Below the pieces are notes generated by a model, which saw only the letters and a program-made list of their open reading frames with translations, did no database searches and was not told where the DNA came from. A DNA stretch of 64,000 nucleotides from the IMG/VR virus record IMGVR_UViG_3300045988_175028; one strand, given 5' to 3'. Every line of letters begins with the position of its first letter. Positions within the stretch are counted from its first letter, which is position 1. The position numbers and the translations under genes are program-made. The DNA is from a virus. Of the stretch, positions 40,863 to 41,011 are shown in pieces.

Positions 40863-41011
40863 CCCCAACTAGCTCAGTTGGTTAGAGCACCCAACTTTAT
40901 CGCATAGTTTAAAAGTAAAATAGCTGTTCTAGTCAGAAGATGCAAGGGCAGGACTTGCTGCGATAGCCAATAATTGGGAGGTCCTGTGTTCAACTCACAG
41001 GTTGGGGACCA
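40863..41011 (+). tRNA. tRNA-Ile(UAU) interrupted after anticodon position 34 by a 72-nt insert
   Basis: Complete acceptor (CCCCAAC/GTTGGGG), D, anticodon (CCCAA/TTGGG) and T arms plus A73-CCA. Loop reads CTT|insert|ATAA. Confidence 0.75.
40898..40969 (+). ncRNA. tRNA-shaped insert 1 (acceptor TATCGCA/TGCGATA, G73, CCA; hairpin loop TTCTAGT)
   Basis: 7 Watson-Crick bp acceptor, GTTT/AAAT D-like hairpin, CTG/CAG hairpin, GCAAG/CTTGC T-like arm. Confidence 0.6.

Follow-up and report, generated by a model that had tools for sequence, protein, structure and literature searches.

An interrupted tRNA-Ile(UAU) gene in a viral tRNA cluster

The virus record IMGVR_UViG_3300045988_175028 of the IMG/VR database, a stretch of 64,000 nucleotides (nt) that is referred to here as the window, carries at positions 40863-41011 a gene for the transfer RNA (tRNA) Ile(UAU), in which a 72-nt insert at 40898-40969 breaks the anticodon loop after U34. 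The outer gene has all stems of a cloverleaf, i.e., the acceptor stem CCCCAAC/GTTGGGG, the D stem GCTC/GAGC, the anticodon stem CCCAA/TTGGG and the T stem CTGTG/CACAG, and ends in A-CCA. The insert reads TATCGCA...TGCGATA-G-CCA and contains a T-like arm GCAAG-GGCAGGA-CTTGC (Table 1). The original prediction, which was made from the letters alone, had described a tRNA-Ile(UAU) gene split after U34 by exactly 72 nt and an insert with its own acceptor helix, T-like arm, discriminator G and a CCA abutting the 3′ exon; the sequence bears out both descriptions, and the split is additionally confirmed by insert-free alleles in related phages, for which it had proposed to search. Two relatives (contigs L005 and L012) carry an uninterrupted tRNA-Ile gene of 77 nt with exons identical to those of the window, the 5′ exon matching the 5′ part of this allele, and with the loop CTTATAA that is split in the window into CTT and ATAA. 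The junction between 40897 and 40970 is fixed, because deletion of 40898-40969 alone yields the insert-free allele.

The joined exons correspond to L005 11076-11149, which ARAGORN calls tRNA-Ile(tat). The outer gene without 40898-40969 belongs to the tRNA family RF00005 of Rfam with 67.6 bits (gathering cut-off 29 bits), a cloverleaf and a 7-nt loop, so that the insert-deleted form expected from the sequence to be a tRNA exists as a natural allele. The spliced junction would read CACCCAACTT directly followed by ATAATTGGGAGG, and in the unspliced form AACTT is followed by TATCGCA and GATAGCCA by ATAATT. Both ARAGORN with default settings and the Rfam tRNA model miss the gene at 40863-41011, and ARAGORN with introns allowed reports it with the intron placed one base off and the label Lys(ttt).

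The gene is part of a tRNA cluster at about 40.7-47.3 kilobases (kb), in which default ARAGORN finds 11 ordinary tRNAs. With introns allowed, three interrupted tRNAs are reported in the cluster, with inserts of 72, 65 and 61 nt (inserts 1, 2 and 3), the latter two lying in a tRNA-Thr(UGU) and a tRNA-Lys(UUU) gene. The labels given by ARAGORN for the three genes, Lys, Pro(tgg) and Gln(ttg), were rejected in favor of Ile, Thr and Lys on the basis of the insert-free alleles and of a parse of the insert from acceptor to CCA; the program's anticodon calls are unreliable here because it fits every intron to the canonical position. Insert 2 ends in CAA instead of CCA and is preceded by a G (position -1), and insert 3 has no anticodon arm.

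Using the open reading frame (ORF) 39788-40726 directly upstream of the cluster as query, 13 related IMG/VR contigs and five contigs from other human-associated assemblies were retrieved, and at the three tRNA sites each gene of these relatives is either interrupted or uninterrupted. L012 encodes an uninterrupted tRNA-Thr(UGU) with a body nearly identical to that of the second gene, and uninterrupted tRNA-Lys(UUU) genes occur in relatives of the window phage. A fourth insert type of 56 nt lies in the tRNA-Lys gene of L008, L011 and L041. An assembly artefact was rejected as explanation, since the same interrupted genes are found in independent assemblies (IMG/VR, the X199_Human co-assembly, three ERZ assemblies and OJAW01). 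All 19 unique interrupted alleles of the clade retain intact cloverleaves, and two tRNA-Lys bodies with compensatory differences in each of their stems contain an identical 61-nt insert. Furthermore, in the window, L011 and L041 the interrupted genes are the only genes for the anticodons UAU, UGU and UUU; in the ORFs of the window AUA makes up 21% of the Ile codons, ACA 23% of the Thr codons and AAA 64% of the Lys codons.

Further elements lie between the genes of the cluster. A 135-nt module at 41012-41146, between the first and the second interrupted tRNA, is present in L004, L016 and L038 and absent from L005, L011, L037 and L041; it contains a helix and a T-like hairpin ending in A-CAA (41019-41076). 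At 42503-42572 lies a tRNA-like sequence that ARAGORN at relaxed threshold calls tRNA-??? with a 2-nt 'anticodon'. Rfam assigns 46579-47173 to the ROOL RNA (302 bits) and 44650-44762 to the RAGATH-33 RNA (139 bits), and 43741-43829 gives a sub-threshold match to twister-P1 (43 bits, E 3e-7). ROOL or GOLLD RNAs also accompany the insert-bearing tRNA clusters in L005, L088 and L066.

Structure of the inserts

Insert types 1, 3 and 4 span exactly the distance from the first base of an acceptor with a 7-base-pair (bp) helix to a discriminator base plus CCA, and type 2 ends in A-CAA. In type 1, which was found in five variants, all stem substitutions are compensatory or lead to G-U pairs, both sides being changed in two acceptor pairs and in one T-stem pair; 100% of cells are paired versus 37-59% when the 3′ partner is slid. 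Support by covariation in insert 1 is limited to the acceptor and T stems. The seven variants of type 2 show two compensatory pairs, located in the D-like hairpin and in a mini-hairpin, and all stem changes keep the pairing. Taken together, five pairs are changed on both sides in types 1 and 2. Inserts 2 and 3 exceed the gathering score of the Rfam tRNA model with 37.1 and 38.5 bits (cut-off 29), and insert 3 also gives a weak match to the model for transfer-messenger RNA (tmRNA; 24.9 bits). Judged from these sequence variants, the RNA structure of the inserts is under selection.

The same architecture in other viral contigs

A generic pattern, in which an inner T loop with a subsequent CCA precedes the loop end TAA and this in turn an outer T loop, was used to scan IMG/VR and yielded at least 119 stretches from many samples, which were then analyzed with ARAGORN and a simple parser. 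A parse was accepted if one split yielded an insert running from a 7-bp acceptor to N-CCA together with a 7-nt loop fitting the tRNA body. Among the matches listed, to which the counts in this section refer, 35 of 98 unique pattern hits in viral contigs lie in interrupted tRNAs, and the parse succeeds in 47 of 87 unique interrupted tRNAs compared to 23 of 17,400 shuffles (0.13%). These 47 genes, with one split each, comprise at least 30 sequence-unrelated insert families of 35-129 nt, which share no common sequence motif beyond the tRNA architecture. The interrupted bodies are those of tRNAs for Ile, Lys, Thr, Asn, Arg, Leu, Glu, Gln and Gly, and the rejoined loops read CTTATAA (Ile), CTTTTAA (Lys), CTTGTAA (Thr), CTGTTAA (Asn), CTTCTAA (Arg), CTTAAAA (Leu) and CTTTCAC (Glu). 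The insert is always located after loop nucleotide 3, 4 or 5 (nucleotides 34, 35 or 36) and always in sense orientation. Position -1 is U in 27 of 30 families, C in the other three and a purine in none, and position +1 is G in 21 of 30.

At the same site and with the same boundaries, complete tRNAs are also found nested in another tRNA: a tRNA-Phe in a tRNA-Arg (L132, 72.4 bits), a tRNA-Gly in a tRNA-Asn (L070, 64.4 bits) and a tRNA-Asp in a tRNA-Asn (L121, 63.5 bits). The ends of these nested genuine tRNAs must come from the tRNA-processing machinery. A separate scan of the same viral loci gave 11 tRNAs, or tRNA-like elements called by ARAGORN, nested in another tRNA, which are partly the same genes. 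With the same pattern, no interrupted or nested tRNA was found among the 120 matches listed from 185,579 cellular genomes. A search of GenBank by megablast and blastn with the tRNA cluster, the third interrupted gene and two other insert-rich loci returned nothing or generic tRNA matches and identified no cultured carrier phage. The tRNA-shaped inserts thus form a large, apparently undescribed class that was observed in numerous viral contigs and not in the cellular genomes sampled.

Endonuclease genes and possible mobility of the inserts

Homing endonuclease genes occur within inserts of related architecture. L125 carries an insert of 906 nt with a GIY-YIG ORF inside the tRNA-like fold, and L085 one of 735 nt with an HNH ORF; in both, the 5′ boundary still has the acceptor strand and the 3′ boundary the T arm and CCA. 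Insert 1 has no ORF, though insert-free target alleles exist, and the endonuclease ORFs of L125 and L085 belong to inserts of related architecture. Moreover, the tRNA genes at L073 170-781 and L068 599-1160 are interrupted by an HNH ORF and, behind it, a full tRNA (Met or Thr), with the 3′ boundary at the inner CCA and a 5′ boundary that is not at an acceptor helix. We propose that the tRNA-shaped inserts might be mobile by homing, which would explain the precise presence/absence polymorphism as well as the identical insert in diverged exons.

The window genome itself is heavily colonized by homing elements, which were noted in the regions 9825-20199 and 33186-33914. Its DnaE-type DNA polymerase III alpha gene is split into ORFs 14399-15865 and 16933-19350 with a LAGLIDADG ORF (15885-16742) in between, a second LAGLIDADG ORF (11742-12569) adjoins the ribonucleotide reductase, and GIY-YIG ORFs lie at 19495-20199 and 33186-33914. 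At 44105-44640, within the tRNA cluster, the stop codon of an HNH ORF (44105-44602) overlaps a minihelix consisting of T arm, acceptor strand and A-CCA (44603-44640). No 5′ acceptor strand matching this minihelix was detected at a distance of up to 1.5 kb, and the minihelix is not followed by an outer 3′ exon; it may have been left over from a tRNA-like insert with an endonuclease gene or be a free-standing form related to such inserts.

RNA ligase, polynucleotide kinase and their neighborhood

Located 6-7 kb downstream of the tRNA cluster, the window encodes an RNA ligase of the T4 Rnl1 family and a polynucleotide 5′-kinase fused to an HD domain (Table 1). The ligase ORF matches phrog_562 at 7.5e-45 and, with residues 46-294, the T4 RNA ligase 1 structures PDB 2C5U and 5TT6 at 1e-8; its true start lies probably about 11 codons downstream of the ORF start, homologues having a length of 361 amino acids. 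The kinase belongs to phrog_505 (polynucleotide kinase), and its closest solved structure is the kinase domain of Clostridium thermocellum Pnkp (7e-18). Three conserved ORFs that adjoin the ligase (49175-50857, 50850-51587 and 53120-53464) have no match in Pfam or the PDB, and a PDB sequence search with the first two as candidate nucleases gave no match. A phage of another lineage (L279, a contig of 162 kb) also encodes an Rnl1, with 45% identity, together with a kinase; its interrupted tRNA-Lys gene lies 6.3 kb upstream of the ligase gene, which provides an independent case of linkage.

Among 53 ORFs near insert-bearing loci that were surveyed with Pfam, no ligase was found; genes of the RNA-repair type (DUF2828/DUF7788, Thg1, vault and Band_7) were present. 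Near insert-bearing clusters (L043-L156) and near Rnl1 homologues (L279, L280 and L284) lie genes for DUF2828/DUF7788 proteins (4 of 53 ORFs), Thg1-like 3′-5′ polymerases, major vault protein, Band_7 proteins and kinases. This set of genes is typical of RNA-repair islands.

Table 1. Features of the interrupted tRNA genes and candidate processing enzymes in the window.
Feature	Position	Strand	Remarks
tRNA-Ile(UAU), 5′ exon	40863..40897	+	acceptor 5′ strand, D arm, anticodon-stem 5′ strand, C32-U33-U34
72-nt tRNA-shaped insert, type 1	40898..40969	+	boundaries set uniquely by the insert-free allele; no match to any Rfam family
Insert 1, acceptor	40898-40904 / 40959-40965	+	
Insert 1, small hairpins	40908-40920 and 40927-40938	+	
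Insert 1, T-like stem	40942-40946 / 40954-40958	+	loop GGCAGGA
Insert 1, discriminator G and CCA	40966; 40967-40969	+	
tRNA-Ile(UAU), 3′ exon	40970..41011	+	A35-U36-A37-A38, anticodon-stem 3′ strand, variable loop, T arm, acceptor 3′ strand, A-CCA
tRNA-Thr(UGU), second interrupted gene	41147..41286	+	loop CTTGTAA, split after CTTG; 65-nt insert 41181-41245 (GGTAGTT...AATTACT-A-CAA)
tRNA-Lys(UUU), third interrupted gene	43223..43358	+	loop CTTTTAA, split after CTTT; 61-nt insert 43257-43317 (GGGGAAG...CTTCTCC-A-CCA)
Polynucleotide 5′-kinase (AAA_33) fused to HD domain, candidate for RNA end-healing	52196..53119	+	AAA_33 2.3e-23; HD 4e-4
T4 Rnl1-family RNA ligase, candidate exon sealer	53445..54563	+	Pfam RNA_lig_T4_1 (PF09511) 56.9 bits, cut-off 28.3

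A proposed splicing pathway

We propose, with a probability of roughly 0.55, that the insert is an intron of a previously undescribed class, which has the shape of a tRNA, sits inside the anticodon and is spliced by nucleases acting on tRNA ends together with an RNA ligase. Splicing as such, the identity of the acting nucleases and the assignment of Rnl1 as the ligase are what we infer from the architecture, the boundaries, the polymorphism, the covariation, the distribution and the co-encoded enzymes observed. The precursor would adopt the outer cloverleaf and the inner tRNA-like fold at the same time. The RNase P of the host would cut between U34, which is position -1 of the inner element, and its position +1 (between 40897 and 40898), leaving the 5′ exon with a 3′-hydroxyl group (3′-OH). 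A tRNA 3′-end endonuclease would cut directly after the inner CCA and release the 3′ exon; candidates are an enzyme of the RNase Z/BN type leaving a 5′-phosphate, or another nuclease, after which the phage kinase would phosphorylate the 5′-OH. A need for the kinase-HD protein would thus arise only in the case of a freed 3′ exon bearing a 5′-OH. The exons, kept in place by the acceptor, D, anticodon and T stems of the outer tRNA, would resemble a tRNA nicked in the anticodon loop, and tRNA-Ile(UAU) might then be completed by the phage Rnl1 sealing this nick. Maturation of the interrupted tRNA-Thr(UGU) and tRNA-Lys(UUU) would follow the same route. Among the pathways considered, this combination of RNase P, a 3′ endonuclease and Rnl1 is the most economical, because the insert ends coincide with mature tRNA ends in many families and in the nested tRNAs.

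A nicked anticodon loop is the type of substrate on which T4 Rnl1 acts, and T4 Pnkp and Rnl1 repair the tRNA-Lys that was cleaved by PrrC. A dependence on a phage ligase would fit the observation of the inserts only in the viral sample and only in the anticodon loop. For RNase P, an optimal substrate has a 12-bp stem, a T loop, a 3′ RCCA and U(-1)/G(+1) (PMC10731613). By this measure the inserts carry the RNase P determinants, i.e., a stack of 7+5 bp, a 7-nt T loop and NCCA. Insert 1 is predicted from its sequence to qualify as an RNase P substrate with 7+5 bp, a 7-nt loop, G-CCA and U(-1), yet its position +1 is a U and its T loop is non-canonical.

Evidence against the proposed pathway and alternative explanations

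Several observations weigh against the splicing pathway proposed here. The cleavage at the 3′ end is its least secure step. Bacillus-type RNase Z is inhibited by an encoded CCA, and strong Shine-Dalgarno sites in the window suggest a Bacillota-like host; the Thermotoga RNase Z and the E. coli RNase BN cleave after an encoded CCA. Conservation with covariation is also seen in insert 2, despite its CAA tail and G(-1), which means that CCA and U(-1) are not strict requirements. The term 'tRNA-shaped', with which the insert in the tRNA-Ile gene had been described, holds for its acceptor helix, T stem and CCA end and does not extend to the Rfam tRNA model, which gives no match to insert 1 even at E<=5; moreover, the T loop GGCAGGA is non-canonical. 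Folded as a double cloverleaf, the 149-nt precursor reaches -35.6 to -38.9 kcal/mol compared to a predicted minimum of -42.2 kcal/mol and lies 3-7 kcal/mol above the predicted minimum free energy, suboptimal predicted folds being common for tRNAs, and its folding z-score of only -1.05 is uninformative.

Further points against the pathway concern the ligase and the survey. Rnl1 is encoded in all 12 related contigs, including three that are insert-free (L002, L006 and L009), and a more distant relative (L282) has Rnl1 together with only intact tRNAs. The ligase is therefore not specific to the inserts, because it is present in insert-free sister phages, and its presence or absence is uninformative within a clade in which all 12 contigs have it. 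A phmmer search for the ligase and the kinase at other insert-bearing loci, where only short flanks are available, gave one kinase match. The intactness of the outer exons in the survey is partly due to ascertainment, because both ARAGORN and the pattern demand intact exons. In L049, L057, L098, L119 and others an ordinary tRNA is directly followed by an orphan 3′ tRNA half, comprising the loop end, an anticodon-stem strand, the T arm, an acceptor strand and CCA, with no 5′ half immediately upstream; these orphan halves could be decayed interrupted genes or more complex nested arrangements. Finally, L073 carries the HNH ORF and the full tRNA-Met in a degenerate Lys-like tRNA with an imperfect outer anticodon stem, a case that does not fit a simple RNase P model.

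These last cases are also what would be expected if a selfish DNA element, mobilized by a homing endonuclease or similar to a miniature inverted-repeat transposable element, had knocked out a dispensable phage tRNA; nothing would then be spliced, and RNase P would at most free the inner RNA and useless tRNA halves. We regard this as unlikely, although it deserves serious consideration: near-identical phages differ in whether their alleles carry the insert, homing endonucleases abound in the genome, terminal inverted repeats are an equally good reading of the 7-bp terminal helix, phage tRNAs can often be dispensed with, and the divergence among the interrupted alleles of the clade is so small that decay might not show yet, in addition to the orphan halves and the degenerate L073 gene in a survey that is biased to intact exons. 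However, the junctions show no target-site duplication, for which reason a transposon producing one was rejected, and covariation is found in the internal T-like, D-like and mini-hairpin stems besides the termini. A selfish element would also have to account for insertion in sense orientation only and after nucleotides 34-36 only, for at least 30 unrelated families, real tRNAs included, in intact outer cloverleaves, and for two diverged tRNA-Lys bodies that contain the same insert and keep all stems by compensatory changes. Moreover, the window would have lost its tRNAs for UAU, UGU and UUU all at once.

The insert could also be a true intron that is removed by other machinery, such as a phage endonuclease recognizing the tRNA-like fold or a small self-cleaving activity; the resulting 2′,3′-cyclic phosphate and 5′-OH would be healed by the kinase-HD protein and sealed by Rnl1 or the host RtcB. 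The unexplained 3′ cut of the RNase P pathway leaves room for this possibility, as does insert 2 with neither CCA nor U(-1). A kinase-HD fusion is encoded that would be needed only if the ends are not already 3′-OH and 5′-phosphate, the three conserved ORFs of unknown function lie beside the ligase, and twister-like and RAGATH RNAs are located in the same cluster. Nevertheless, the absence of any shared motif beyond tRNA architecture in the at least 30 insert families, together with the finding that ordinary tRNAs act as inserts, makes such a dedicated activity improbable; ribozyme models do not match the inserts, a bulge-helix-bulge geometry is lacking, and the classical role in repair after anticodon nuclease attack equally explains the kinase and the ligase. 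Least plausible, with only a slim chance, is that splicing never takes place and the composite RNA itself is functional, acting as a decoy or sponge for host anticodon nucleases or tRNA-binding defense proteins or delivering tRNA halves. The U-rich loops of Lys-UUU, Ile-UAU, Thr-UGU and Asn-GUU are of the type attacked by known anticodon nucleases, and the neighborhoods are rich in RNA-repair genes; however, insert-free alleles at the same sites encode ordinary tRNAs, RNase P should cut the composite because its boundaries are tRNA processing sites, and the nucleotides of the anticodon loop are preserved without change, for which there would be no need in a decoy whose loop is disrupted.

Comparison with known systems

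Group I introns, e.g., in tRNA-Leu(UAA), share with the inserts the position as intervening sequence in the anticodon loop of a bacterial-type tRNA, the presence or absence among close relatives, the GIY-YIG or HNH ORFs in some copies and the U before the 5′ junction. They differ in their length of 200 nt or more, compared to 35-129 nt, and the inserts sit after nucleotides 34-36, inside the anticodon, with boundaries that are set by the tRNA fold. Classical examples of 213-225 nt in tRNA-Leu were found in the same survey (L042, L088 and L134). A group I intron was rejected for the 72-nt insert, since no P3-P8 core and no match to RF00028 was detected at E<=5 within 40700-46600, and the terminal G of group I introns is replaced by the A of CCA in 47 of 47 parsed cases among the matches listed. 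In agreement with the original prediction that the insert is neither a group I nor a group II intron, no group I, group II or other intron model and no ribozyme model of Rfam matches the inserts of this region, at the gathering cut-offs or at E<=5.

The bulge-helix-bulge introns of archaea and eukaryotes, which are processed by the splicing endonuclease and RtcB or Trl1, resemble the inserts in being short, in the protein-dependent logic of cutting and ligating and in exons that are held by the tRNA body; Trl1 additionally shows the same logic of healing and sealing, combining an Rnl1-like ligase with a kinase. In contrast, the inserts are found in a bacterial virus, recognition would rely on the tRNA shape of the intron itself, and the window showed no splicing endonuclease. 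By inspection, insert 1 has no two 3-nt bulges around a 4-bp helix, and a bulge-helix-bulge intron was rejected: the 5′ site lies at the base of the 7-bp helix after a 3-nt linker, and the 3′ site lies 4 nt beyond the end of this helix, with a 4-nt linker after it.

Mimics of an acceptor and T arm, often without an anticodon arm, serve as cleavage signals for RNase P and RNase Z in the MALAT1 mascRNA, in the t-elements of plant mitochondria and in the tRNA-like domain of tmRNA. These define transcript ends, whereas none of them is located inside the anticodon of another tRNA or needs its flanks to be rejoined. The repair system of T4 consists of the same enzyme families, Pnkp and Rnl1, and the predicted substrate is likewise a tRNA broken in its anticodon loop; in T4 the break is made by a host anticodon nuclease, whereas here it would be programmed by the gene structure. 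In its proposed mode of action, the insert would unite a tRNA-like processing signal for RNase P and RNase Z with the T4 repair reaction. In the split and permuted tRNA genes of Nanoarchaeum, Caldivirga and Cyanidioschyzon a tRNA is made from halves with a junction in or near the anticodon loop, but separate or circularized transcripts are joined by bulge-helix-bulge processing and no tRNA-like element is embedded. The arrangement had not been recognized from the literature in the original prediction, and a full-text search of open-access PubMed Central and bioRxiv gave no description of it, subscription-only papers lying outside this search. To our knowledge, no system has been described that places a tRNA-like element inside the anticodon of another tRNA and rejoins the flanks.

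Possible significance

In a wider sense, the inserts might represent a third mechanistic class of phage tRNA intron, i.e., mobile, tRNA-shaped elements ranging from 35-nt minihelices to complete functional tRNAs and sometimes carrying an endonuclease, which would be excised by RNase P and a 3′ endonuclease with Rnl1/Pnkp as dedicated splicing ligase; for this generalization we see the balance as even. If true, it would be the first protein-dependent tRNA splicing pathway in the bacterial world. It would assign a constitutive function to T4-type RNA ligase 1, and Rnl1/Pnkp would gain a programmed substrate beyond the damage caused by anticodon nucleases. Furthermore, a selfish element would have been made harmless by its tRNA look-alike shape, which bears on the origin of tRNA introns, split tRNAs and tRNA halves. 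A possible application would be the enzyme-defined, scar-free excision of RNA cassettes. Whether spliced or not, the inserts lead to a mis-annotation of phage tRNA repertoires, as default finders miss the genes and the intron mode of ARAGORN gives a wrong anticodon.

Additional observations

A different short insert type of about 35-110 nt was observed in phage tRNAs at L047 10563-10809, L070 5-122, L074 345-536, L102 5816-6215 and L134 6930-7108. It has a conserved ACAGCAAGTTTA-like motif, is not tRNA-like and lies apparently in the 5′ strand of the anticodon stem and not in the loop. Elsewhere in the window, the protein encoded at 56206-57447 has an N-terminal Mtd (major tropism determinant) domain, which suggests from its sequence that it may be the target of a diversity-generating retroelement.

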